Source: an uncultured archaeon (GTDB taxonomy: Archaea; Thermoplasmatota; Thermoplasmata; Thermoplasmatales; Thermoplasmataceae). Taken from it: a stretch of DNA of 64,000 nt. Below are positions 1 to 12,607 of this stretch, piece after piece (position 1 is the first letter of the stretch; each line of letters opens with the position of its first letter). The position numbers and the translations under genes were made by a program. Location: positions 992,001 to 1,056,000 of the forward strand of contig CP009479.1 of NCBI GenBank assembly GCA_000965745.1, in the 5' to 3' direction. Below the pieces are notes generated by a model, which saw nothing but the letters and a program-made list of their open reading frames with translations, was not told the DNA's origin and did no database searches.

Positions 1-616
1 CTATGTTTTCGATCTCACCAACAGAAAACTGAGGTTCGCTCGGATCATCGTGTGGCGAAGTCCCACCTCCTGATACGTGTATCTTTATGACATCTGCACC
101 TTGCTTTATTTGTTCTCTGACAGCCTTTCTGACCTCTACTTCACCATCACTAACTCTACCGTTTGAAAACGGTGTGTCTGCATGCCCTCCTGTTTCTGTA
201 ATAGGTCTGCCGGCAGCTATAACTCTTGGACCCTTTACAATATCATCGAGAATTGCCTCCTTCAGGGCTACTATCTGGTAACCGTTTGAACCTAGATCCC
301 GCAACGTTGTGAAGCCTGCCATTAGGCTCTTATACGCATACTTGTAAGCCCTTATTGCACCATATTCTGTCTTTTCGACCAAAGACCTTGCAAGATTTGC
401 TCCTGCAGTTGCAGATAGGTGAACGTGAAGGTCAATAAGACCTGGCATAACAAAGAACCCTCTTGCATCGATAACCTTGTCGACTGAAGGATCCTCTTCA
501 AAATTATCCATCAATTTTATTATTGACCCATTCTCAACCAGTATGGATCTGCTGTCAGCAATTCCCTCTTCTTCGACTCCAGTAAAAACTGAATCCGTCC
601 TAATTAATACTCTCAT
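1..616 (-). CDS. Metal-dependent amidohydrolase (Xaa-Pro dipeptidase-like subgroup), truncated by window edge
   Basis: Manual translation from ATG at 616: MRVLIRTDSVF...VMPGLIDLHVHL...AGFTTLRDLG...GPRVIAAG..ITETGGHAD...GADVIKIHVSGG; DxHxH motif and carbamylated-Lys region; absent from ORF track because it has no stop in the window. Confidence 0.88.
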   Translation of the reverse strand, partial: MRVLIRTDSVFTGVEEEGIADSRSILVENGSIIKLMDNFEEDPSVDKVIDARGFFVMPGLIDLHVHLSATAGANLARSLVEKTEYGAIRAYKYAYKSLMAGFTTLRDLGSNGYQIVALKEAILDDIVKGPRVIAAGRPITETGGHADTPFSNGRVSDGEVEVRKAVREQIKQGADVIKIHVSGGGTSPHDDPSEPQFSVGEIENI

Positions 617-727
617 GTTCTATCCAATCTAGCAATATTCATGAAAATTATAATACCTCCTGTAGCAGAATTATTGGTGAATCCCTGAATGCAACAATTT
701 TAATGCAACTTCCATCTTTTTGCCTAT

Positions 728-1798
728 ATGGTGTCCACCCCTGACCTTTCGAAACTGTGCCTGTTTTCAGACTGGGAAAGTGCCGCAAGTAAAGCACTCA
801 GCAAGGAAAACTTTGATTATGTCCAGGAGGCTGCCGGTGATGAATTGACATCCAAGGATAACCGAAGCGATCTTGATAGATGCAAGATAATACCAAGAAT
901 ATTGAGGGGGATAGCAGGTGTAGACACCTCAACATCTGTTCTCGGCATGAATCTTCCATCCCCGATAATGCTCGCACCCGTCGGGGGCCAAGAATTGTTC
1001 GATGCTGGTGGAGAGCTTTCAGTTGCAAAAGCCTCTTCCAGGCTGGGTATTCCAATGGTCGTTAGCACGGTTTCATCCTACTCGCTCGAATCAATTTCCT
1101 CACAATTGGGAAATACTGACGGGATTTTCCAACTCTATATGTTCAACGATGACGAATTTAATAGATCACTGGTTGAAAGAGCAGAAAATTCAGGATATAA
1201 GTCAATAATCTTTACTGTGGACGGTCCTACCATAGGGAGGAGGCCCAGAAGCATAAAGAACGGTTTCAGCAATGAAGGCCATACAAGCGGGAACATGTTC
1301 GGAAAAAACAATGAGAAAGCTCTGGGAAAGCAACTGAAACTGAAATGCGACATATCGTGGTCAGATGTTGACAAGCTCAGGGAATGGACCTCACTACCTG
1401 TTGTTCTGAAAGGAATTGTTAGCCCTCTGGACGCCACTGAAGCTATGGATCGGGGAGTGGACGGCATTGTGGTATCCAACCATGGGGGAAGGCAACTTGA
1501 CGGTGCCATCTCTTCCATATCAGCCCTAGGGACTATTAATCGTGCCACTAAAGGCGAAATAACAATTCTTCTGGACGGTGGAATCAGATCCGGATCTGAT
1601 ATACTGAAGGCACTCTGCCTTGGCGCTGATGCAGTTCTGATTGGGAGACTGTACGTTTATGCACTATCGGTGGCAGGATCAAAAGGAGTTGAGAAAGCCT
1701 TAGTCGACCTTCTATCCGACCTGCAGATATCAATGCTGAACTCTGGAATTTCTTCAGTAAAGGAAGCCGATCCTTCCTATATAACTGGACCAGCGTAA
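728..1798 (+). CDS. FMN-dependent alpha-hydroxy acid oxidase/dehydrogenase family
   Basis: SNHGGRQLD, DGGIRSGSDILKALCLGA, LAPVG and TVDxPxxGRR motifs. Confidence 0.93.
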   Translation: MVSTPDLSKLCLFSDWESAASKALSKENFDYVQEAAGDELTSKDNRSDLDRCKIIPRILRGIAGVDTSTSVLGMNLPSPIMLAPVGGQELFDAGGELSVAKASSRLGIPMVVSTVSSYSLESISSQLGNTDGIFQLYMFNDDEFNRSLVERAENSGYKSIIFTVDGPTIGRRPRSIKNGFSNEGHTSGNMFGKNNEKALGKQLKLKCDISWSDVDKLREWTSLPVVLKGIVSPLDATEAMDRGVDGIVVSNHGGRQLDGAISSISALGTINRATKGEITILLDGGIRSGSDILKALCLGADAVLIGRLYVYALSVAGSKGVEKALVDLLSDLQISMLNSGISSVKEADPSYITGPA

Positions 1799-1854
1799 TC
1801 ACAAAGCAGCATTTCTAGAAATACATAAGATGCCGATAAGAAGAAAAATAGAAA

Positions 1855-2907
1855 TTATCTGGACGGGGCGTCCTTCACATAACTTCTCAGTTTCCCTAGG
1901 CCCTCGACTTCACAATCAAGGAAATCTCCATCCTTGAGGAAGAACGGTTCAGGATCCGGTTTTCTGAAAGCTGCCACACCAGATATAGTTCCTGTGGATA
2001 TCATGTCTCCGGGATTCAGAGTTACCCATGAATACCTTTCCACAATCTGCTCCAGCTTGACACTGAGCTTATTTGTAGATCCCATCTGCCTTGGATCATC
2101 ATTGACTCTGAGTTCCATCGTCATGTTGTGGGGGTCTTTTACGTATCTGTAGGGAACGAGAGTGGGCCCGAGAGGTGCAAACGTGTCAAGATTCTTGCCC
2201 AGATTCAGGAGACCATTCTTCATCTCTTCCTTCTGGAGGTCCCTGGCGGTAACATCGTTGAATACAGTGAAACCGAAAATGCCCTCTTTCGCCTCATCAA
2301 GGCGGGCATTCTTCAGCTTCTTGCCAATGATTATGGCGACTTCAAGCTCGTGGTCGAGCTTCTTTGTGAAGGAGGGCTTTTCAATAACCTTGTCGTGCCC
2401 AATTACGGAATCAGGATTCTTGAGAAAAGATATCCACTCAGGTATGGGGAATGGCCAGTCAGCAGCAGTCCCTTCCTTTGCGTGTTCTCTGAAGTTCCCC
2501 GCTGTGTGTATGATCTTCCCGGGCCTTAGAGGGGCGTGGAGGATAACATCACTTATCTTGACAACAAAGCCCTCTTTCTCAGCGAGCTTCTCCAGATCAC
2601 TCTCACTCATCCCGGAAAAGTGTTTGAAAACCTCATCAACATGGTCCATTGCATGGGGGCCAGCCTGGATCAATTTATGCATATCAGTTGGTGCGTGGGC
2701 ATCGGAATAGCATGTTCCCTTGAGATCCTTGCCCCCTTTGTTCTCGACAAAATGCCTGCTGCCAAGATTGAGGTCAACTATGTGATCTCCAACTACGAAT
2801 CCTGTCCTGCACACTCCAAGCCTGTCTCTTGAATATGTTACAAGCCTGAGTACGCCATCATTTTTTGAGGTGTATTTTCCATATATCGTCGACGCCATGA
2901 AAATCAT
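1855..2907 (-). CDS. Fumarylacetoacetate hydrolase family protein
   Basis: LDHELEVAIIIGK, FNDVTARDLQ, GKNLDTFAPLGP, GDMISTGT. Confidence 0.92.
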   Translation of the reverse strand: MIFMASTIYGKYTSKNDGVLRLVTYSRDRLGVCRTGFVVGDHIVDLNLGSRHFVENKGGKDLKGTCYSDAHAPTDMHKLIQAGPHAMDHVDEVFKHFSGMSESDLEKLAEKEGFVVKISDVILHAPLRPGKIIHTAGNFREHAKEGTAADWPFPIPEWISFLKNPDSVIGHDKVIEKPSFTKKLDHELEVAIIIGKKLKNARLDEAKEGIFGFTVFNDVTARDLQKEEMKNGLLNLGKNLDTFAPLGPTLVPYRYVKDPHNMTMELRVNDDPRQMGSTNKLSVKLEQIVERYSWVTLNPGDMISTGTISGVAAFRKPDPEPFFLKDGDFLDCEVEGLGKLRSYVKDAPSR

Positions 2908-3085
2908 TCACATATGATTAGTCTCTACTAATAATTTGCGCGTCGTACCTAGACACACATCACTCCTGTCCCGTTATATCCTTACTTTCCAGGATTTTTA
3001 CCATGCACATGCATCTGATAAAAACAGCACGTTACAGCATATGTGAGAATGGCAAAGGTTAAAAAAGAGACAGGCGATAAGCTTC

Positions 3086-5491
3086 ATGAGGCGCAAGTAT
3101 ATGGAGGTTACAAAAGAAATAGAGGTCACCCGCAGGCCTGAAACCATGCCTAAAAAATATACAGGCAAAGGGATCAAAAGAAAGCACTCATACTCACTTA
3201 TACAGGGAAAAGGAACATTTGCAGAAGACGTTGACCCTCCGAGAGGAACGTTTTACGTGAGCTTTGTAAGATCCCCCTTTGCAAGAGCCAAGATTCTTAG
3301 TATTGATACTTCAAAAGCGCTGGAGCTGGAGGGAGTCATAGAAGTCTTCACAGGTGAGGATTTCCCGGACGTCAGCCTCGGTTACTGGATGCATCTTCCA
3401 ACGCTTATGGAACCTAGGAGAAGACCACTGGCGATCGACCATGTGATGTACAACGGTGAACCTGTTGTAGCAGTTGTTGCCGTTGATCAGTATACAGCAG
3501 AAGATGCCGCTGAACTCGTGGAAGTCAACTATGAGCCGGAAGACCCTGTTCTTGATCCATTCGAAGCCATCGCAAACCCTGGGAAGAAGATATTTGATGA
3601 CATGAAAGACAACATTCTCTATACAGACAGTTACTCATCGACTTCAGACCTGCAGGAGATAATCAACAACTGCGCCCTGGTTATTGAAGAAACGTACAAG
3701 AACGGAAGAAGCACAACAATAACGCTTGAACCCAGGGTCCAGATCGCTTCTTACGACGGGGACCGGCTGGATATCTGGAGCACTACCCAGTACCCTCACG
3801 TCCTCAGGACATACATTTCTGAAATGCTTGACATTTCCGAAGGCCGGGTAAGAGTTTACGCCCTCGACGTGGGCGGAGGATGGGGGCCAAAATCGGCTGT
3901 ATTCAGTGATGACGCTACTGTTTATGCTATAGCTGTAAAGATGAAGGCTACAGTGAAATGGGTTGAAACCAGGACCGAAGACCTTCTTACAACTGGCCAC
4001 GAGAGGGACCAGATTCACAAGATAAGGGCAGGGTACAACAAGAATGGCAGACTCGTGGCTTTCTATGACGAGATGGTTGCAGACGTCGGAGCCGGTACCA
4101 CGTTCTGGGCAGAGGTCCAGCCGGCTATGGTTGCTTCAGTAACTGTTCCCGGACCTTACAAGTTTGCAAACTATGGCTTCGATCTTAAGGCTGTTACAAC
4201 CAACAAGGCCCCATGGTCTCCGAACGTAGGATTTGGGCGGCCTATAGCAGCTCTGGTTATGGAAAGGACAATGGACATGGCGGCCAGAAAGCTGAACATG
4301 GATCCAGCCCAAATAAGAAAAATAAACCTGGTCCATAAGGACGAATACCCATACAAGAGCCCCTCAAGAGTTGTTTATGACAGCGGAGATTACGAAGGGG
4401 GTCTTGAGAAGCTCAAAGAGATAATGCACTATGACGATCTAATCAAGCTCAGGAATCAGAAGAGAAAAGAGGGAAAATATCTCGGAATCGGGCTGGGCGT
4501 TTACTCTGAATATACTGCTCCCTCATCGTTCAGGCTACAGAAAATCCTTGGATGGGAAGTAGGCGGATATGAAAAAGCAGTGATCAAGGTCTCCCCCAGC
4601 GGCAAGGTTACGGTAAACCTTGGTGTGATGGACAGCGGGCAGGGCCATGATACTGTATATGCACAAGTGGCTGCGGATGGCCTTGGTGTTGACATAGATG
4701 ATGTATTTGTCTACGAAGGCGACACGGAGCGAGACCCGTACGGATTCGGCTCCTGGGCCAGCAGATCAACGGTTACAGCAGGAAATGCTGTCCTCCTCGC
4801 AGCAGAGAAGGTCAGGAAGAAGGTGCTCAGAATAGCAGCTCACAGCATGGGTACGGATGTTGAACATCTTGAAATCTCAGGAGGGGTGATAAGAAGCAGG
4901 AAATCCTCAAAAACGATGACCCTTGAGGAGGTCGCAAAGATTGCATACAGGAGATCTGTGGAACTCCCTGAAGGTGAAGAGCCCGAGATCGAGGAACATG
5001 CAATATTTGAATCACCCAATGAAAACACCGTAGTGAGTTACGCCTGGCATGGGGTACTGGCTGAAGTCGATCCTGAAGTAGGAGAGATAAGACTTCTGAA
5101 ATATTACGTGGTTGACGATGCAGGTGTGATCATCAACCCACTGAGTGCAGAGGGCCAGGTTCATGGCTCCACCATAGCTCACGGGATGCAGCAGACCTTC
5201 CATGAGCTGAAGTACAACGAAGAGGGAGTGCTTATGACATCCAACTTCTGGGATTACATCCCGATTTCAACGCTGGATGTCCCTGAGGTATTTGAGATCG
5301 CAAACCTCGAAAGCCCTTCAACCACTCCGGGAGGCTATAAGGGGATGGGAGAAGGTGGTGCTATAGGAGCACCTCCTGCTATCTCAAACGCAATATCGGA
5401 CGCACTCTCGCCCCTTGGAATAGAGATAAAGAAAATCCCGATTTCCTGGGAAGATGTTTGGGATCTGGTTCAGGAGAAGAGGAACCAGTAA
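3086..5491 (+). CDS. Xanthine oxidase-family molybdopterin-binding large subunit (CutA/CoxL-like; start may be 3101 or 3146)
   Basis: RSPFARAKI, TTQYPH, GGGWGPK, GQGHDT, SRS, INP..EGQVHG, KGMGEGG (catalytic Glu). Confidence 0.93.
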   Translation: MRRKYMEVTKEIEVTRRPETMPKKYTGKGIKRKHSYSLIQGKGTFAEDVDPPRGTFYVSFVRSPFARAKILSIDTSKALELEGVIEVFTGEDFPDVSLGYWMHLPTLMEPRRRPLAIDHVMYNGEPVVAVVAVDQYTAEDAAELVEVNYEPEDPVLDPFEAIANPGKKIFDDMKDNILYTDSYSSTSDLQEIINNCALVIEETYKNGRSTTITLEPRVQIASYDGDRLDIWSTTQYPHVLRTYISEMLDISEGRVRVYALDVGGGWGPKSAVFSDDATVYAIAVKMKATVKWVETRTEDLLTTGHERDQIHKIRAGYNKNGRLVAFYDEMVADVGAGTTFWAEVQPAMVASVTVPGPYKFANYGFDLKAVTTNKAPWSPNVGFGRPIAALVMERTMDMAARKLNMDPAQIRKINLVHKDEYPYKSPSRVVYDSGDYEGGLEKLKEIMHYDDLIKLRNQKRKEGKYLGIGLGVYSEYTAPSSFRLQKILGWEVGGYEKAVIKVSPSGKVTVNLGVMDSGQGHDTVYAQVAADGLGVDIDDVFVYEGDTERDPYGFGSWASRSTVTAGNAVLLAAEKVRKKVLRIAAHSMGTDVEHLEISGGVIRSRKSSKTMTLEEVAKIAYRRSVELPEGEEPEIEEHAIFESPNENTVVSYAWHGVLAEVDPEVGEIRLLKYYVVDDAGVIINPLSAEGQVHGSTIAHGMQQTFHELKYNEEGVLMTSNFWDYIPISTLDVPEVFEIANLESPSTTPGGYKGMGEGGAIGAPPAISNAISDALSPLGIEIKKIPISWEDVWDLVQEKRNQ

Positions 5492-5716
5492 ATTTACACT
5501 TTTACCACTATTTTCAATTTTTTTTTGCACCGTTTTCCTCGGGGATTTCAGTTCCTCATTTTCGACAGATATGCTCTCTAATTCAGGGGGCAGGTCCTAA
5601 ACAAACGGATTCTCTTATTTTGTCCAAATATGTCCTGATATATTTATTTAAAATTATTGACCAATTCAAAATCCGCAGGTACAAAGGATTTTATACACAT
5701 CGAACGTTAACGTTAC

Positions 5717-7156
5717 ATGGTAACGTCTGACTCTCCAGAGCGTCTAAAGAAAACAAACGTGGGGACTTTCGGCCTGTTCTTTCAGGGGTTAGGGCAGGAA
5801 GCGCCAATAGCTATTTTCATTGGATCAGTGACTGGGGCTGCAGCTTTCGCACTGGGCGCAACACCTCTCGCATTCATAATCGGGATGCTGGCATCGCTGC
5901 TCTCTGGGAACAGTATCTATCAGTTCTCAAAGAAGGTCGCGCATGCGGGAGGGTACTCAGCATACGTAAACAAAGGACTTGGTAAAGCATTAGCGGCTTT
6001 CACCGGCTATCTGTATGTGCTTTACGAACTCGTGGGACCAGCTTTCATTGTATTGATCTACCTGTGGACTTTCAGCGGCTCAATTAATGCGGTTTTTGGA
6101 ACAGCACTTCCTAATTCTGTAGGGATCATTTATGTGGCTGTCGCCTTAGTTGCAGCTTTTGTAGTAGTTTTCAGAGGTCTAAGGCTGTCGGTTCTTGCAT
6201 TGACCATACTTGGAATAATACAGTTTGCAATTGTGTTTGTAATATCATCCATATTGCTGGTGAAATCCCCTGTCATCACCACCCAGCCTTTCAGCCCCGC
6301 AGTGGCGTTTGGCGGATGGCATGGCCTCTTCCTGGGATTCATAACAGGAAGTTATGGGGCATATGCAGGCTATGGCAGTGTGGTCCCACTTGGGGAGGAA
6401 GTCAAGTCCCCACACAAGTCGATAGGAAGAGCAGTTGTGCTTATTATTGTGATAATGGGTATAACATACATATTCAGCTCATTCGCCATGGTAAGCTCAT
6501 GGGGAATTTCTGCCATGTCAGGCTTTTCCAATTCCGGATTCCCGGGAGCAATACTGGCAGGAAAATACATCGGACTGTCCTCCGAGGCCGTGGTCATTTT
6601 GGTTTACAATGCCGTCATATTCACGCCGCTGGTTACAATGCTGACAGCCTGTTCAAGAATGATGTATTCCCTCAGCAGGCAGGATCTTTTGCCTAAGAGG
6701 CTTTCAAGGGTGCACAGAAAATTCGGGACACCAAGTAACGCAGTGCTGCTATCAACCCTGCTCATCACCCTTATAATAATAGTGGATGGTGCAATTTTCT
6801 GGTCCTCTTTCGGTTTCCAGTTGGGTGTGTTCTTTGCGTGGATAATTCTGGAGATCATATGGTCCCTCTCAACATTGGTAATACATGTTCTGGTCAACAC
6901 ATCGCTTTCCGTGGAGGCTGCAAGGGGCTTCAGGGCAAGGGAAATTTTCACGCATTTCGTGTTTCCCACAGCTGCATCGCTCATAATAGTGCTGGCAATC
7001 TCATTCTCTTTCCAGGGAATGTCAATGCCCATAACACTTGCGCCGATCACCCTTGTCGTATACATGCTGACAACACTCGGTGTAATGTGGCTACAGAAGG
7101 CGAAGGTCAGAGTACTGAAGTTTGAGGATGCAGTTGACCTTACTGAGGCATCATAA
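5717..7156 (+). CDS. APC-superfamily amino acid permease
   Basis: About 12 TM helices; HAGGYSAYV, GEEVKSPHKSIGRA, SRMMYSLSRQDLLP..HRKFGTP. Confidence 0.9.
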   Translation: MVTSDSPERLKKTNVGTFGLFFQGLGQEAPIAIFIGSVTGAAAFALGATPLAFIIGMLASLLSGNSIYQFSKKVAHAGGYSAYVNKGLGKALAAFTGYLYVLYELVGPAFIVLIYLWTFSGSINAVFGTALPNSVGIIYVAVALVAAFVVVFRGLRLSVLALTILGIIQFAIVFVISSILLVKSPVITTQPFSPAVAFGGWHGLFLGFITGSYGAYAGYGSVVPLGEEVKSPHKSIGRAVVLIIVIMGITYIFSSFAMVSSWGISAMSGFSNSGFPGAILAGKYIGLSSEAVVILVYNAVIFTPLVTMLTACSRMMYSLSRQDLLPKRLSRVHRKFGTPSNAVLLSTLLITLIIIVDGAIFWSSFGFQLGVFFAWIILEIIWSLSTLVIHVLVNTSLSVEAARGFRAREIFTHFVFPTAASLIIVLAISFSFQGMSMPITLAPITLVVYMLTTLGVMWLQKAKVRVLKFEDAVDLTEAS

Positions 7157-7180
7157 AATTTTTAAATTGTTTCAGGGGAC

Positions 7181-8413
7181 CTAAACAAGCCCCTTTATTT
7201 TTTCAGACAGTTCATCAACGGAATTCATCAGAGTAACCTGTTCTGCGGACGTAAATCTCGGGACATAGTCCTTGAACCCGTTTCCTGTTATCATGGCCGA
7301 AACAGTTTCATCTCCTCTGATTCTCCCGTCTGATATGGCCCTTTTCACTGCTGCAAGTGCTGTGGCTGACGACATCTCGGAAAATATACCTTCTCTTTTC
7401 GCTATTTCCTTCTGTGCATCCATGATCTCAGCATCGGTCACAGTGATCCCGAATCCTCCGGATCCTTTTACGGCCATTAGGGGATGATTTGCGCCGAAGT
7501 TAACTCTGAGTGCTCCTGCGATTGTATCAGCAGTCTCTGTGTCTTCAACCGAATCGAGTTTTCTGTCGATTGCCTGCACAAGTGGGTTGGCTCCTGCTCC
7601 CTGGACGGGGACCATCTTAGGTATGCTGTCCACAAGCCCGAGCTCCTTAAGCTCGGAAAATCCCTTGAAAATGGCGTAGAGGAGATCTCCACCGGCAGTG
7701 GGGACTATAATGTAGTCAGGGGTATGGGTTGCAGCAATTTCATAGGCGACAGTCTTGAGCGCGTCGAGTGCAAGTGGGTTGAAGGGAGCCCAAACAAACC
7801 CGTTGTGCCAGGTGGGAAGTGCTTCCTGAACCTTCTGGAGTGCCTTAAACAGGCTATCCTTCGTGGAGAAAAGATTTCTCACCCTGATGATGGTGGGATC
7901 GTACATTGAAATCTGGCCAAGTTTTGATATTGTAGAGTCTTCCCTTACGAGGAGAAGTGATTTTATTCCCCCTCTTGCAGCATACGTAGAAATGGCGGCT
8001 GCAGCATTTCCGGAGGAAGCCGTAAAAATGCCTTCCTTATGCCATTCCTTCACGAGAGAAACCTCCATGGAACCGACCCTGTCCTTGAACGACCCGCTTG
8101 GGTTCTGACCTTCCAGTTTGCACCAGAGATTTGATGCACCTATCTCTTTCCCATAGGATTTCGCCTCTACATACGGTGTCCATCCTTCGTTAAGTGAAGT
8201 AATATTTTCTGGAGATACGGGCGGGAACAGGTCTTTAAAGTGCCAGATCGATCTTCCTCTGTTTTTCAGGTCGATCTCAACATCATCGAGGTTGTACCTT
8301 CCTGTCAAAATTCCGCCGCATGACTCGCATACAGACAAAGTTGTTGAATCATATGCCTTCCCGCACTCAAGGCAAACCAAGCCTTCGTATGAATTCCCGC
8401 TCATGCCCTGCAT
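7181..8413 (-). CDS. Threonine synthase-like PLP fold-type II enzyme with N-terminal CxxC..CxxC (start 8404 possible)
   Basis: KLEGQNPSGSFKDR, ASSGNAA, VPTAGG, EGIFSE, ITGNGFKD. Confidence 0.85.
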   Translation of the reverse strand: MQGMSGNSYEGLVCLECGKAYDSTTLSVCESCGGILTGRYNLDDVEIDLKNRGRSIWHFKDLFPPVSPENITSLNEGWTPYVEAKSYGKEIGASNLWCKLEGQNPSGSFKDRVGSMEVSLVKEWHKEGIFTASSGNAAAAISTYAARGGIKSLLLVREDSTISKLGQISMYDPTIIRVRNLFSTKDSLFKALQKVQEALPTWHNGFVWAPFNPLALDALKTVAYEIAATHTPDYIIVPTAGGDLLYAIFKGFSELKELGLVDSIPKMVPVQGAGANPLVQAIDRKLDSVEDTETADTIAGALRVNFGANHPLMAVKGSGGFGITVTDAEIMDAQKEIAKREGIFSEMSSATALAAVKRAISDGRIRGDETVSAMITGNGFKDYVPRFTSAEQVTLMNSVDELSEKIKGLV

Positions 8414-8477
8414 ATCGGCATATGAGCTAATTAACGTTTCTTTCTGGAGCTCAGACCAGGCTTAAGATATTGCATTA

Positions 8478-9131
8478 TCATGGTTCTGCAGCCACGACTC
8501 TTGCCATAGCACCGCTTCCGCTCCTCACCTTTAGCGGAAGGGCTGCAATAAAATATTCCTTGCCCGTTTCAAGTTTGTCCAGATTGGCCAGGTCCTCAAT
8601 CAGGAATCTCTGCCTTGCAAGAAGTGCCCTGTGGACCTTGAAATCTGAATTCTTGAACGGCTCAATTCCCAGGGTATCTATTCCGATTACATCTATCCTG
8701 TGCTCATTGAGGAAAGGTACGGTGTCCATCGCAAGTCCGGGGAAATGTTTCTGAAACTCGTCCGAAAAATCCCTCTTCCTGTCCCAACCTGTGTTTATAA
8801 GAATTATCCTGCCGTCGTATTCAGGTTTCCAGGCTCCCTCCAGGTCCTCCATGAAAATCTCGTCATCGTGATGGGAGGGTCTAATTACATAACCACTACC
8901 CATTATGGATGAAAGGGGCGCCTTATCTATCGTTGCGCCATCCTGATGGAAATGAAAAGGTGCATCGATATGGGTCCCGCAATGAGTGGATGAGGAATAT
9001 GATTCCATGCCAAACCCGTCTTTGTCCGGAGTTGCTATTGGTGAAATATTCAGCTCTACATTGCCCGGATAAAGGGGCATTTTGTCTTCAAGTGGAACAC
9101 TTATGTCATAGTACTTGCTGAAGCCTATCAT
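8478..9131 (-). CDS. Cyclase family metal hydrolase (kynurenine formamidase KynB-like)
   Basis: HCGTHIDAPFHF (HxGTHxDxPxH), GIDT, HRALL...LIEDLANL, LPLK...GAMARVVA. Confidence 0.92.
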   Translation of the reverse strand: MIGFSKYYDISVPLEDKMPLYPGNVELNISPIATPDKDGFGMESYSSSTHCGTHIDAPFHFHQDGATIDKAPLSSIMGSGYVIRPSHHDDEIFMEDLEGAWKPEYDGRIILINTGWDRKRDFSDEFQKHFPGLAMDTVPFLNEHRIDVIGIDTLGIEPFKNSDFKVHRALLARQRFLIEDLANLDKLETGKEYFIAALPLKVRSGSGAMARVVAAEP

Positions 9132-9194
9132 GCTCCGTATAACAGGAAAATCACAATAAAACTTTCTAAGTAAATAAAGAAATGGAAGATTAAC

Positions 9195-10313
9195 TTATTT
9201 TCCACTGTTCATTTCTGCAATTCTTCTTACTGCTTTCTCTATATCTTCACCAGTATTGTAGAAATGCGGGGCAATTCTAAGCCCTATCCCTCTGCTCGAA
9301 GTAATGATCCCTTCGGATCTGAGCCTGTTCTCCATCTGGTGGGGCTCATTGACTACAAAGGAAACCATGGCTCCCCTCTCTTCATCATTTTCAGGAGATA
9401 TTGTTTTAAGCCCAAGCTCTGAACCGAGATCCATGGCTTTTCTTGTAAGGCTTGTAATCTTCTCCCTTATTGATGGCACACCCTTTTTCAGGATGACCTT
9501 CAACCCGGTGATGCTTGCATACAAGGCAGGAATTGCCCAGGTGCCAGACTGGAACCGATCTGCACTGTCAGCATATTCCAGTTTCTCAGCTCCAAACTGG
9601 AATGGGTCTTTCTGTGAAAACCACCCTATGTAGGCAGGTTCAAGGTTTTTTATCAGCTCTTTTCTCACATAAAGAAAAGCCAACCCGGGAAGTCCAAGCA
9701 GATATTTTAGAGTACCAGCTGTAAGATAGTCCATGTCCATCTTTTTCACATCAATGGGGACATTCCCAATTGACTGGTAGGCGTCGACATAGATCTCAGA
9801 ATTGCCTGAGTGTGCGTATTCACCTATCTGCTTCACGTTCTGCAGGAACCCGTTAAGCGAACTTACGTGTACCGCTGAAACGAGTCTTGTTTTTGGATTG
9901 ATCACTTTCTTGTAATCTTCGGGCTCAATTCTGTAATTCCTGTTTTTAAGTGTAATCACTTTGGCTCCAAACTTTTCCTGACCCAGAAGGACGTGATTGG
10001 AGGTGGGATATTCCATGTCGCTGATCACAAGCTCGTTCTTCCTGCTGTACTCGAAGGCGCTCAGAAGAGCCCCAAATGCAGAGGAAACTGAAAAATGCGG
10101 GGCAACCTCCTCCGGGTCTGCGTTAATCAGCCTGGCGAAAAGCTCCTTGACCTCAGAAACTTTCTGGACCCATGAATCCCAAGGGTTCCCGAATTCAATC
10201 AAATCCTGTTTATACTGCTCCATGGAATCAATCAGGCCCTGGTAAACCGGGGTGTGTGAACACCCCGCCAGGTAGGTGGTCCTGGTCACCATTTCGAAAT
10301 CTTCACTGCTCAT
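9195..10313 (-). CDS. Aminotransferase class V PLP enzyme, kynureninase-like
   Basis: DAYQSIG, GTLKYLLGLPG (PLP Lys), GWFSQKDPF, RFQSGT, LRIAPHFYN; no persulfide-Cys loop. Confidence 0.82.
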   Translation of the reverse strand: MSSEDFEMVTRTTYLAGCSHTPVYQGLIDSMEQYKQDLIEFGNPWDSWVQKVSEVKELFARLINADPEEVAPHFSVSSAFGALLSAFEYSRKNELVISDMEYPTSNHVLLGQEKFGAKVITLKNRNYRIEPEDYKKVINPKTRLVSAVHVSSLNGFLQNVKQIGEYAHSGNSEIYVDAYQSIGNVPIDVKKMDMDYLTAGTLKYLLGLPGLAFLYVRKELIKNLEPAYIGWFSQKDPFQFGAEKLEYADSADRFQSGTWAIPALYASITGLKVILKKGVPSIREKITSLTRKAMDLGSELGLKTISPENDEERGAMVSFVVNEPHQMENRLRSEGIITSSRGIGLRIAPHFYNTGEDIEKAVRRIAEMNSGK

Positions 10314-11685
10314 TTTTCTTACCCGTCCTGAGATAGTATAGGTATGCTATCGAGAAAAATATTACTGTAACTACTCCGGAGGGTATTGTGATTTGAATTC
10401 CCGGTGTGAACCAAGTGCTGATCAGGACAGAAACAAGAAGCCCTATTCCGATAACACTGAACACTGGAGCCCCTTTTATGTGGTACTGAAGCTTCGCCCC
10501 CTGGGAGGCTCTTCTTCTCCTGAACGAGAGATGGCTGATCAGGATTATGATCCACGTAAAAATTGCTCCGAACACAGCTATTCCGAAAAGGTCCAGATAC
10601 GCAGATGTTGCACCAAAGCTGTAATCAAGATAAATCGAGAACGCGATTCCGATTGCAGCTATGATCAGTGCATTGAAGGGGACCTTGAACCTGTTCAGTT
10701 TCCCGAATGCGTCAGGTGCCCTCTTGGCTCTTGAGAGAGAGAACAGCATTCTTATCGTGAGGTAAATGTCTGTGTTGCTGCTTGACAGTGCTGCAGTCAG
10801 CACAACAAAATTCATCAGTGCTGCAGCAAAGGGGATTCCAATAAGGCCAAAAGCTGTTACAAACGGGCTCTCTGAAACACCGGCCTGAGTCCATGGGACC
10901 ATTCCAACCATGATGAACAGGGATATCACGTAGAAAAGAACCAGCCTTACAACCATTCCTCTCATTGCCCTTGGAACACTCTTGCCAGGGTCAGAGGATT
11001 CACCAGCAGTTACTGCAACAACCTCCACACCGATATAGGAGAAAAGAGCAACAACAGTCGCAAGCCATACGCCTTTGAAACCATGGGGGAAGAACCCTCC
11101 GAACGCTGTGTAGGCTGGTGTTATTCCGAACCTTGTAGCGCTAAGGAGCACGAATCCTCCCAGGATTATGAACACGATGATCGTAACGACCTTTATCATG
11201 CTGAACCAGTATTCGAAGGTTCCAAACGCTTTAACAGCTATTGCGTTGACAGACAGAAGGAGCAGTGCAAATATGCCAATCCAGACCACGGGAGTTACTC
11301 CGGGGAACCAGAGCTGCATATATATTCCGGCTGCAACCATCTCACCGCCTATTGCAATTATCTGAGCAAACCAGTACACCCATCTCACAATAAATCCGGC
11401 ATAATCGTTGATATAGGTTTCAGCGAAATTACCGAAAGAACCAGCGGAGGGCATCTCTACAGACATCTCTGAAAGGGCTATCATAACTGTAAGTGCTATG
11501 AAAGCGCCTATCATATATGAGAAGACAACTCCGGGGCCAGCGAGGCCAACGGCGAAACCACTTCCGAGGAACAGACCTGTTCCAATGGCCGAACCAATAG
11601 AAATCATCAGCATCTGCCCGGAAGTAAGTTTTCTCTGGAGTCCAGCTTCCCTCTCCATTATAGATTTTTCTTTTTCTACCATCAC
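10303..11685 (-). CDS. Amino acid permease (AAT family, GabP/ProY/AroP-like)
   Basis: LQRKL...MISIGSAIGTGLFLGSG, FGTFEYWFSMIKV, FSYIGVE, SPFV, NFVVLTAALSSSN; overlaps the PLP gene. Confidence 0.93.
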   Translation of the reverse strand: MMVEKEKSIMEREAGLQRKLTSGQMLMISIGSAIGTGLFLGSGFAVGLAGPGVVFSYMIGAFIALTVMIALSEMSVEMPSAGSFGNFAETYINDYAGFIVRWVYWFAQIIAIGGEMVAAGIYMQLWFPGVTPVVWIGIFALLLLSVNAIAVKAFGTFEYWFSMIKVVTIIVFIILGGFVLLSATRFGITPAYTAFGGFFPHGFKGVWLATVVALFSYIGVEVVAVTAGESSDPGKSVPRAMRGMVVRLVLFYVISLFIMVGMVPWTQAGVSESPFVTAFGLIGIPFAAALMNFVVLTAALSSSNTDIYLTIRMLFSLSRAKRAPDAFGKLNRFKVPFNALIIAAIGIAFSIYLDYSFGATSAYLDLFGIAVFGAIFTWIIILISHLSFRRRRASQGAKLQYHIKGAPVFSVIGIGLLVSVLISTWFTPGIQITIPSGVVTVIFFSIAYLYYLRTGKKNEQ

Positions 11686-11689
11686 TATT

Positions 11690-11895
11690 CACCATTAAAC
11701 AGGCACAACTTCTTATTTCCAATTCGAAGGCATGCCCGTACTTCTCCAGAACAAGAAAACCTGCTGCGGATGCCGCCTCCATCCCAGAAATAACATCGGA
11801 GAGAGTACTTGCCCAATCCGGTGCAGGATTGCGCGGCATGCTATCCCATGGGTCTCAGGATTGTACCTCAGTGGACACAGGTCTACAAAGGTCTT
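11690..11895 (-). pseudogene. Possible frameshifted remnant of a DsrE-family protein
   Basis: Joining two frames gives IACRAILHRIG/STLSDVISGMEAASAAGFLVLEKYGHAF, resembling the DsrE C-terminal AC...dli.Gve...aG pattern; by eye only. Confidence 0.25.
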
Positions 11896-12398
11896 GAACT
11901 AGATTGGTCGTACATACAATTTGCAACTATAAAAATTCTTCCGTAAACTGAAATATAAAACTTAAAAATAGTTAGATCTCACAAAAATAAACAATTATGG
12001 ATTTAATTATATAAACTATTTGTAAAACATATCTCGATACAAACTTGAAAATCTTATCATACCCATCAACGGTCTGGAAATATTCTCATATCTATTGGCG
12101 CATAAAGTAATGCTATATTTGGTATAACTACATTTCTCATGCATTTCTCATTTCAGAGTCTTCTTTCAGTAATTTATTCCAAAAGTGACTTGTCACCGGG
12201 CTGATAAGTTTTTTAAGATCACCAAATTGCAGCATTTTATGGAAGTGGGTTCGGCTGATCTATGTAATTTGCCGTAAGACCGGTCTCCACCACATAAAAT
12301 ACACGACTTAATTCGAAGCATAATTATATTTTAATATTTCTTCAACTGAATTATTCAAGGTATAAAGTTTAATAGGAGGTTTTCAATCGATAAATGGC

Positions 12399-12599
12399 AT
12401 GTTTCATGCTGGCGATAATCTGAAAAAGATGCTTGAAAGGGAGATTGCGTATTACAGGGCACAAAATGAAAATTTGAAGAAAGAGTTGTCTGACCTTGAG
12501 AAGACATACAGCAACAACAGGACGAGATTGGAGATTATCAGCGTAGATTATGAAGAAAGCGAGGAAATGATAAGAATCCTCAAATCCCTGACAAAATAG
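12399..12599 (+). CDS. Hypothetical coiled-coil protein (66 aa)
   Basis: AGGAGGT upstream; heptad-rich charged sequence. Confidence 0.7.
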   Translation: MFHAGDNLKKMLEREIAYYRAQNENLKKELSDLEKTYSNNRTRLEIISVDYEESEEMIRILKSLTK

Positions 12600-12607
12600 G
12601 TGATGTA

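Follow-up and report, generated by a model that had tools for sequence, protein, structure and literature searches.

Which compound is broken down by a set of genes that joins two amino-acid permeases and two pyridoxal phosphate (PLP) enzymes to a KynB-type cyclase and a molybdenum (Mo) hydroxylase subunit, and do these genes form one pathway? Nine genes of this kind lie at the left end of a 64,000-nucleotide stretch of the genome of an uncultured archaeon of the Thermoplasmataceae (GenBank CP009479.1). We call this stretch the window; it is C1:992001-1056000, where C1 is the sole contig of the 2.23-Mb genome (99.4% complete). A sequence-only reading had described the nine genes as an island for the uptake and degradation of a modified or aromatic amino acid by an unfamiliar route. 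We find that they are the right end of a larger cluster. The conserved core of this cluster probably encodes an undescribed route for degrading an amino-substituted aromatic or N-heteroaromatic compound, which may come from the turnover of amino acids, peptides or vitamins.

The nine genes are one end of a 40-kb cluster

The nine open reading frames (ORFs) and their Pfam families are where the sequence-only reading placed them (Table 1), and the genes for the AAT permease, the kynureninase-fold PLP enzyme, the window's cyclase and the ThrC-like enzyme do run in the same direction, with gaps of -11, 63 and 64 nt. None of the nine reaches a function-specific NCBIfam cutoff; the nearest is the ThrC-like enzyme, with 156.6 bits against the 167.1 of TIGR00260 (thrC). 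The limits of the "nine-gene island" did not hold up: its left limit is the edge of the window, and 24 more catabolic or transport genes follow over 28 kb. The full cluster spans C1:963998-1003685 (about 40 kb and about 33 genes), and the nine genes occupy its right 12 kb. The amidohydrolase gene itself crosses the left edge: 586 nt of it lie beyond, and the window holds only its 5' half.

Besides the window's cyclase, the whole cluster includes two SDRs and two other cyclases. The enzymes that we consider decisive (an M20 enzyme, a cyclase with a distinctive lysine, an SDR and a DRE-TIM enzyme) are all outside the window. Genes for CoxM/S/L/G lie 9–13 kb to the left of the window, so the window's Mo subunit has candidate partners.

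The GC content of the cluster (46.3%, against 46.4% for the genome) gives no sign of recent transfer, and the cluster is an island by its patchy distribution only (6 of 103 genomes of the family). We saw no regulator gene in the 40-kb cluster, and a scan for sigma-70 promoters and terminators, which is of a type unsuited to archaea, gave results at chance level. Upstream of the AAT permease is an AT-rich gap of about 0.9 kb (window positions 11686-12600), where a 66-aa gene is called in close relatives.

A core of the cluster is conserved across phyla

By tracing orthologues of the Mo subunit, we found 11 lineages outside the genus that carry core clusters, with 13–81 kb seen per lineage. They include other Thermoplasmataceae, another family of Thermoplasmata, Sulfodiicoccus acidiphilus, a metagenome-assembled genome from the Thermoprotei, archaeon HR01, and lineages known from metagenomes. 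We counted a gene as present if its best match in this genome was the cluster gene, at 38% identity or more; absences in these counts are weakened by short contigs. The clustering is kept in the 11 lineages (41–78% identity) while gene order is shuffled, which favors selection for clustering over a single recent transfer of the block. The M20 enzyme is found in 10 of the 11, the Lys-type cyclase and the DRE-TIM enzyme in 8 each, the second SDR, the crotonase and the second Mo large subunit in 6 each, and FAH in 5 (FAH identity across phyla is 61–71%). Other core or near-core genes are CoxM (5 lineages), MaoC (4) and MFS (4); a PqqC/CADD-like diiron protein accompanies the core in 2.

The nine genes of the window fare differently. 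The PLP enzyme and the ThrC-like enzyme are found with the core in three lineages each, the APC permease and the amidohydrolase in one each, and the FMN oxidase, the window's cyclase and the AAT permease in none. No more than four of the nine occur together in any of the 11 lineages, and only the Mo subunit and FAH belong to the core outside the genus. So the expectation of conserved clustering was right in that a cluster is conserved across phyla, but the conserved set differs from the nine genes, and the idea that those nine are the pathway is not supported. Within the genus, one relative (G002) has the whole cluster in the same order at 73–98% identity. Another (G001) has the left part together with FAH, the Mo subunit, the cyclase and the PLP gene; the other five window genes are absent there.

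We therefore considered a patchwork, in which the AAT-PLP-cyclase-ThrC operon, along with the FMN oxidase, the APC permease and the amidohydrolase, is unrelated to the Mo/M20 core and acts on other substrates (a hydroxylated or S-substituted amino acid, for example). The counts of zero for the AAT permease, the FMN oxidase and the window's cyclase fit a patchwork, as do the five genes missing from G001. Furthermore, 23 of the 103 family genomes have an orthologue of the PLP enzyme and just 3 of those have the Mo subunit; in the other 20, the PLP gene stands alone where we read its surroundings. In three genomes, the ThrC-like gene and an HpcH aldolase gene are paired outside the core, and this genome has eight cyclases and eight Mo large subunits to draw from. 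However, four lineages carry the PLP gene within the core cluster, and in two it lies immediately upstream of the gene for the Mo subunit; the ThrC-like gene is inside the cluster in the three outside lineages, and of the five family genomes with the ThrC-like gene, four carry the core. On balance we consider the patchwork rather unlikely. (Across the family, the Mo subunit and FAH are each in 6 of 103 genomes, with both in 5; the AAT permease is in 2, this species and one congener; and FMN oxidase homologues are in 26.) An undescribed catabolic route, as the sequence-only reading had suggested, seems the likely explanation for clustering that persists across phyla in shuffled order and for the failure of all nine genes to reach a function-specific cutoff.

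At 80 metagenome loci with M20 orthologues, the same cyclase, FAH, SDR, DRE-TIM and Mo genes are frequent neighbors, although these counts lump paralogues and are indicative only. At five loci (L119, L123, L126, L141 and L142), the core occurs with an LLM oxidoreductase, Fo synthase-like and ketopantoate-reductase-like genes, and an M24 hydrolase; we recognized these families by eye from the sequence and BLAST. The LLM and Fo synthase-like genes suggest that an F420-dependent step replaces the SDR. This version of the core is apparently bacterial, judging by the gene content of the metagenome contigs and the Atlas taxa of similar M20 clusters. A search of genome contigs with a single M20 query gave six close archaeal loci and no named bacterial genome. 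Searches of plasmids with the M20 enzyme, the SDR and the cyclase gave matches of at most about 43% identity and no orthologous cluster. Plasmid homologues of the PLP enzyme (30–37% identity) have varied neighbors, which in two cases include RidA and FAD oxidases.

The M20 enzyme is related to 5-nitroanthranilate aminohydrolase

The core gene with the most informative relative is the M20 enzyme. In a profile search of the PDB, it matched 5-nitroanthranilate aminohydrolase (NaaA, 5K8M) at 262 bits, and other M20 proteins, including DapE and ArgE, at 91 bits or less. Similarly, a folded model of the enzyme ranked 5K8M first (Z 43.6, root-mean-square deviation [rmsd] 2.5 Å, 32% identity; the next match has Z 38.7). 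In the M20 enzyme, Asn replaces the bridging Asp and there is no second metal site, which leaves a mononuclear His/Asn/Glu site: His86, Asn125 and Glu159 align to His86, Asn124 and Glu158 of NaaA. Glu197, Arg280 and Trp364 align to Glu196, Arg289 and Trp372 of NaaA, and all six of these residues are invariant in 20 orthologues.

NaaA exchanges the amino group of an aromatic compound for a hydroxyl by a metal-dependent nucleophilic aromatic substitution (SNAr) (PMC9814641, PMC10306065), and it requires an activating nitro group (PMC9814641). Because the M20 enzyme is NaaA-like and NaaA needs activation, the core may handle an electron-poor aromatic amine. This amine would be either an aminoazine acid or a keto acid of the o-aminoaryl type.

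The other enzymes have remodeled active sites

The model of the PLP enzyme (pLDDT 91) is closest to kynureninase from Pseudomonas fluorescens (1QZ9, Z 43.1, rmsd 2.1), followed by cystine lyase C-DES (Z 41.2) and SufS (40.8). Four residues of the kynureninase pocket are retained (Trp64, Trp256, Thr282 and Arg375 correspond to Trp45, Trp231, Thr258 and Arg346), and His204 is replaced by Gln. Tyr226 of kynureninase, which precedes the PLP lysine, is a catalytic residue; it is Leu202 here, and none of 20 homologues has Tyr at this position. The equivalent Tyr275 of human kynureninase binds the carbonyl of the substrate (PMC11329768), so the simplest interpretation is that the substrate lacks the ketone of kynurenine. 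A simple KynB-KynU reading fails at this key residue.

The window's cyclase retains the full binuclear metal set of KynB (HxGTHxDxPxH, Asp, His, I(L/I)E) and has YPGN instead of WPGD in the pocket, with loss of the Trp. It has two near paralogues (44–52% identity) among the eight cyclases of the genome. In the core cyclase, the position of KynB Glu172 is taken by a Lys that does not vary across 16 rows (in MKS or a close variant), and the GLQC/GLAS motif of isatin hydrolases is not found in these 16 aligned rows (motifs as defined in PMC6117287). With Lys instead of Glu172 and no isatin-hydrolase motif, the core cyclase is a third type.

The ThrC-like enzyme resembles threonine synthase in its fold-type II PLP architecture, N-terminal Cys cluster, SFKDR lysine motif and 155-bit match to 2ZSJ, but the motif that binds the substrate's phosphate is replaced: it has FNPLALDALKT instead of VNPYRIEGQKT and lacks the signature NS-x-NP-x-R-xx-GQKT. 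None of the eight orthologues retains the Asn-Ser or the Arg that bind the phosphate. A thrC with the canonical motif is located elsewhere, adjoining a probable homoserine kinase gene (C1:1850203-1852346). The ThrC-like gene recurs with the core, RidA and HpcH aldolase, and these neighbors suggest that it is a dehydratase that yields a 2-oxo acid by way of an enamine.

The Mo subunit has the features of the xanthine oxidase (XO) family (three Pfam domains, the catalytic Glu756, Gln235 and a GQG motif). Its active-site loop is NVGFG instead of the usual YRGxG, so that Arg is replaced by Val or Ile. Loss of this Arg (mostly to Val or Ile) marks the whole clade above 47% identity, so it does not reflect decay. 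The match to the model for form I CO dehydrogenase is 445.6 bits against a cutoff of 991, and the Cys-containing loop is absent. The altered motifs of the ThrC-like enzyme and the Mo subunit, to which the sequence-only reading had drawn attention, are therefore genuine and are kept in orthologues.

Among the remaining window proteins, FAH retains the His-x-x-Glu dyad and the metal ligands. The FMN oxidase matches 4-hydroxymandelate oxidase (243 bits) and glycolate oxidases (226–234 bits). (Two other core clusters contain a GlcD-like FAD oxidase.) The amidohydrolase scores 286.7 bits with the model for Xaa-Pro dipeptidase (cutoff 500). An orthologue of the APC permease is near the core in G378 (48% identity), and others are beside the M20 loci L061 and L062.

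We also considered a purine-type pathway. The Mo enzymes would oxidize a purine-like ring and the PqqC-like protein would act as an oxidase, with the M20 enzyme, the class V PLP enzyme and FAH analogous to allantoate amidohydrolase, PucG and ureidoglycolate lyase. PuuE-like deacetylases beside the bacterial-type M20 loci, and glyoxylate-handling families nearby, fit this idea. However, the M20 model matches allantoate amidohydrolase at just Z 25.8 (43.6 for NaaA), and the PLP model has a similar preference for kynureninase (43.1) over ureidoglycine aminotransferase (31.2). Also, the Mo subunits score far below the cutoffs for xanthine dehydrogenase, and the SDR, crotonase, MaoC and DRE-TIM genes would be left unexplained. 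We consider a purine-type pathway very improbable.

A proposed route

We assigned every reaction below from the chemistry of the families; gene content, conservation, residues and folds are what we observed or modeled. (1) The substrate would be taken up by MFS, APC or AAT carriers, and dipeptidases would free the amino acid. (2) The kynureninase-fold enzyme would remove the side chain, by retro-aldol cleavage between Cβ and Cγ or by β-elimination; in other lineages, an aminotransferase and a hydroxy-acid oxidase might do so instead. (3) The ring would be hydroxylated next to N with oxygen from water, and the two Mo large subunits probably share one CoxM/S pair. (4) An SDR would transfer hydride, with an F420-type LLM taking its place in the apparently bacterial versions. 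(5) The Lys-type cyclase would hydrolyze a lactam or imide. (6) The NaaA-like M20 enzyme would hydrolytically remove the ring amino group by an SNAr-type reaction. (7) FAH would cleave a C-C bond or decarboxylate, and the crotonase, MaoC, DRE-TIM enzyme, ThrC-like dehydratase and HpcH aldolase would lead to products at the level of pyruvate or acetyl-CoA. The AAT and APC permeases, the FMN oxidase, the amidohydrolase and the window's cyclase may be lineage-specific feeders.

Is the substrate an amino acid? The case is circumstantial: genes beside the core encode dipeptidases, ABC carriers for peptides and amino acids, RidA and aminotransferases, which favor such a feed. As one form of the proposal, we tentatively consider a route from tryptophan by way of oxindole and isatin, which might run from 2-oxindole to dioxindole, isatin, 2-aminophenylglyoxylate and a deaminated acid. 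An indole substrate is favored, by analogy, by the kynureninase fold, the anthranilate-type deaminase, a gene related to tryptophan dioxygenase (TDO, see below) and the precedent of Variovorax. A small aminoazine derived from a pterin, thiamin or pyridine is possible too, although we hold it slightly more loosely; in its favor, rings of this kind undergo SNAr readily, and the core is not followed by a ring-cleaving dioxygenase. Other substrates seem very unlikely. A more specific version, which we find doubtful, is a kynurenine-free breakdown of tryptophan or another heteroaryl amino acid, with the M20 enzyme as the deaminase. The Mo hydroxylases or a TDO homologue resembling MarE would oxygenate the ring to the oxindole level, the kynureninase-fold enzyme would free alanine by a retro-aldol reaction, and the Lys-type cyclase would open the lactam.

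We also considered that the core might be biosynthetic instead, making a cofactor or secondary metabolite with a LeuA-like Claisen synthase and a diiron oxidase. The DRE-TIM enzyme does have its best scores with isopropylmalate and homocitrate synthases, and the PqqC/CADD-like protein resembles biosynthetic oxidases. But the many importers and hydrolases, the patchy distribution, the lack of LeuCD or LeuB partners in the cluster and the adjoining CoA-ligase/β-oxidation module speak against this, and a biosynthetic core would greatly surprise us.

Several observations weigh against the proposed catabolic route. The 11 lineages were picked by their Mo subunit, and with gene transfer among them they are not independent. 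In S. acidiphilus, the orthologues of FAH, the M20 enzyme and the second Mo subunit are each split into two ORFs (L044:2830-5194 and L157:14001-16495), by either decay or sequencing error. The DRE-TIM enzyme, which resembles a Claisen synthase, is hard to place in the route. Gentisate-dioxygenase-like genes, which bear on the fate of a benzenoid product, are present in only two of the five core carriers tested. The TDO-like gene is not linked to the core, its occurrences amount to about two lineage events, and we found no copy in the carriers G468, G455, G378 and S. acidiphilus. Arg373 of NaaA is part of the 5-nitroanthranilate site, and the core M20 enzyme has Tyr365 at this position. Finally, plain anthranilate lacks the nitro group that NaaA needs (PMC9814641).

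A divergent TDO homologue and the canonical kynurenine pathway

As the sequence-only reading noted, no TDO is encoded in the window, but a divergent member of the family is encoded elsewhere in the genome. It scores 19 bits with the Pfam model (cutoff 34.9); in the ESM Atlas it scores 0.96, with PF03301 in 30 of 30 matches. By eye, the heme His and the substrate Arg are retained and the distal His is replaced by Gln. Its loop is LKGGT, with Lys for Thr, where TDO has GTGGS and where MarE, a TDO homologue that forms 2-oxindole, has SLGGR (PMC11904535). The gene is in 5 of the 103 family genomes, all of them core carriers. We view it as a lead towards tryptophan.

This gene also keeps alive, at low odds, the canonical kynurenine pathway with divergent enzymes: the TDO-like protein would form N-formylkynurenine, the window's cyclase would act as KynB and the PLP enzyme as KynU, with anthranilate passed onward. 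This genome (G000), G001 and G002 have the TDO-like gene together with the cyclase and PLP genes, the cyclase has the metal ligands and I-E motif of KynB, and the PLP enzyme, with its four pocket residues, is the best match to KynU in the genome. However, the scores are far below the cutoffs (KynU model TIGR01814, 68.7 bits versus 246.4; KynB model TIGR03035, 108.9 versus 223; and the Pfam score of the TDO-like protein). Furthermore, Tyr226 is replaced in all 20 homologues of the PLP enzyme, both the distal His and the Thr of GTGGS are replaced in the TDO-like protein, and the TDO-like gene was not found in 20 carriers of the PLP gene. We think that the canonical pathway is quite unlikely.

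Comparison to known pathways

With the kynurenine pathway (KynA-KynB-KynU), the locus shares a KynB-type cyclase next to a KynU-fold PLP enzyme, and the genome has a TDO-family gene; but outside the genus the cyclase and PLP genes do not stay paired, and the TDO-like gene, which is unlinked, encodes altered loops. The iad genes of Variovorax, for the breakdown of indole-3-acetic acid, include an amidase annotated as KynB, a CoA ligase, a thiolase and a dehydrogenase, whose substrate is an oxidized indole (10.1101/2025.10.25.684584). Amidase, CoA ligase, thiolase and dehydrogenase families are found here too, partly in a second module (Table 1), but the iad route starts with a Rieske dioxygenase, while here there are Mo hydroxylases and we saw no Rieske enzyme in the cluster. 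Routes with isatin hydrolase differ in that the core cyclase lacks the GLQC/GLAS motif. As in the NaaA pathway of Bradyrhizobium JS329, there is an M20 enzyme with an Asn-containing mononuclear site, the catalytic Glu and the equivalent of Arg289, but the cluster has no nitrosalicylate dioxygenase, and its M20 enzyme is accompanied by Mo hydroxylases and a cyclase.

The XO-family azine routes include those of HpoH (2-hydroxypyridine, Rhodococcus) and Kdh (nicotine, Arthrobacter). The cluster differs from these, and from the Lum genes for lumichrome in Nocardioides, as it lacks a P450, a Rieske enzyme, a catechol dioxygenase and the LumK/L pair. The likeness to such routes is in ring hydroxylation by XO-family enzymes, hydrolytic opening, deamination and an aldolase/FAH end (PMC12746152, PMC6117287). 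We rejected a riboflavin/lumichrome pathway, which needs the P450, Rieske and catechol dioxygenase enzymes (PMC12746152). As judged from sequence, the cluster would work like the N-heterocycle routes that combine Mo hydroxylases with hydrolases, and its gene content matches none of those that we checked. Our search of the open literature turned up no account of these genes as a set (subscription papers were outside the search). To our knowledge, the catabolism of N-heteroaromatic compounds has barely been described in archaea.

Other catabolic loci in the genome

The second module adjoins the core in G468 and is interleaved with it in S. acidiphilus; it could supply the CoA steps implied by the crotonase and MaoC. 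More broadly, the eight Mo large subunits and eight cyclases suggest the genome of a specialist in scavenging aromatic compounds. A third catabolic cluster (C1:655580-683928, with families assigned partly by eye) contains three UbiD-like genes, UbiX, a cyclase, an Amidohydro_2-like gene and CoxS/M/L, as well as MFS, PuuE-like and HpcH genes. A fourth (C1:1644111-1667422) contains two gentisate-dioxygenase-like genes, CoxL/S/M, FAH and an ABC carrier.

Table 1. Genes of the cluster and related loci. Positions without a prefix are in the window; C1 positions are in the contig; L numbers are our handles for loci.
Feature	Position	Strand	Remark
Amidohydrolase, prolidase-like, 400 aa	1..616, past window edge to C1:991414	-	accessory
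FMN_dh alpha-hydroxy-acid oxidase/dehydrogenase, 356 aa	728..1798	+	accessory
Long FAH-family enzyme, 350 aa	1855..2907	-	core
Mo-hydroxylase large subunit, 801 aa, Qor/CODH/Kdh group	3086..5491	+	core
APC-family permease, 479 aa	5717..7156	+	accessory
ThrC-like PALP PLP lyase, 410 aa	7181..8413	-	recurrent core partner
KynB-type binuclear cyclase/amidohydrolase, 217 aa	8478..9131	-	accessory
Class V PLP enzyme with KYNU_C, kynureninase fold, 372 aa	9195..10313	-	recurrent core partner, often stand-alone
AAT/YAT-family amino-acid permease, 460 aa	10303..11685	-	in 2 of 103 family genomes
TIM epimerase-like, putative permease, FAD oxidoreductase, MFS, PqqC/CADD-like diiron protein, SDR	C1:963998-971444		
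Lys-type cyclase, DRE-TIM enzyme, SDR	C1:971537-974730		core or near-core
M20 enzyme	C1:974763-976046	+	core; 16-17 kb left of window
MFS, crotonase, MaoC, CoxM, CoxS, second Mo large subunit, CoxG	C1:976198-983435		core or near-core
HpcH aldolase, 2-hydroxyacid dehydrogenase, third cyclase, MBL hydrolase, two MFS, amidohydrolase	C1:983584-991350		
TDO-family heme protein, 227 aa	C1:288467-289150 (L148:1162-1845)	-	ESM Atlas
Second module: CoxS/M, 4-HBCR-like Mo subunit, two acyl-CoA dehydrogenases, OCD-like reductase, crotonase, two CoA ligases, thiolase, DUF35-like OB-fold partner	C1:538798-557256 (L159)		

Significance

The nine genes should be merged with the upstream part of the cluster when their function is considered. 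The core is shared by at least two phyla of archaea, occurs in distantly related archaea of hot springs, and is found on metagenome contigs that look bacterial. It brings together subfamilies that have been consistently remodeled: a kynureninase fold without the Tyr, a threonine synthase without the Arg, a Mo enzyme whose loop lacks Arg, and the Lys-type cyclase. These enzymes are a panel for asking which natural amine is the substrate of NaaA-type deaminases, as the one characterized member that we found acts on a nitroaromatic compound. If the kynurenine-free route is correct, it would also show a compound on which the SNAr aminohydrolase family acts in nature.

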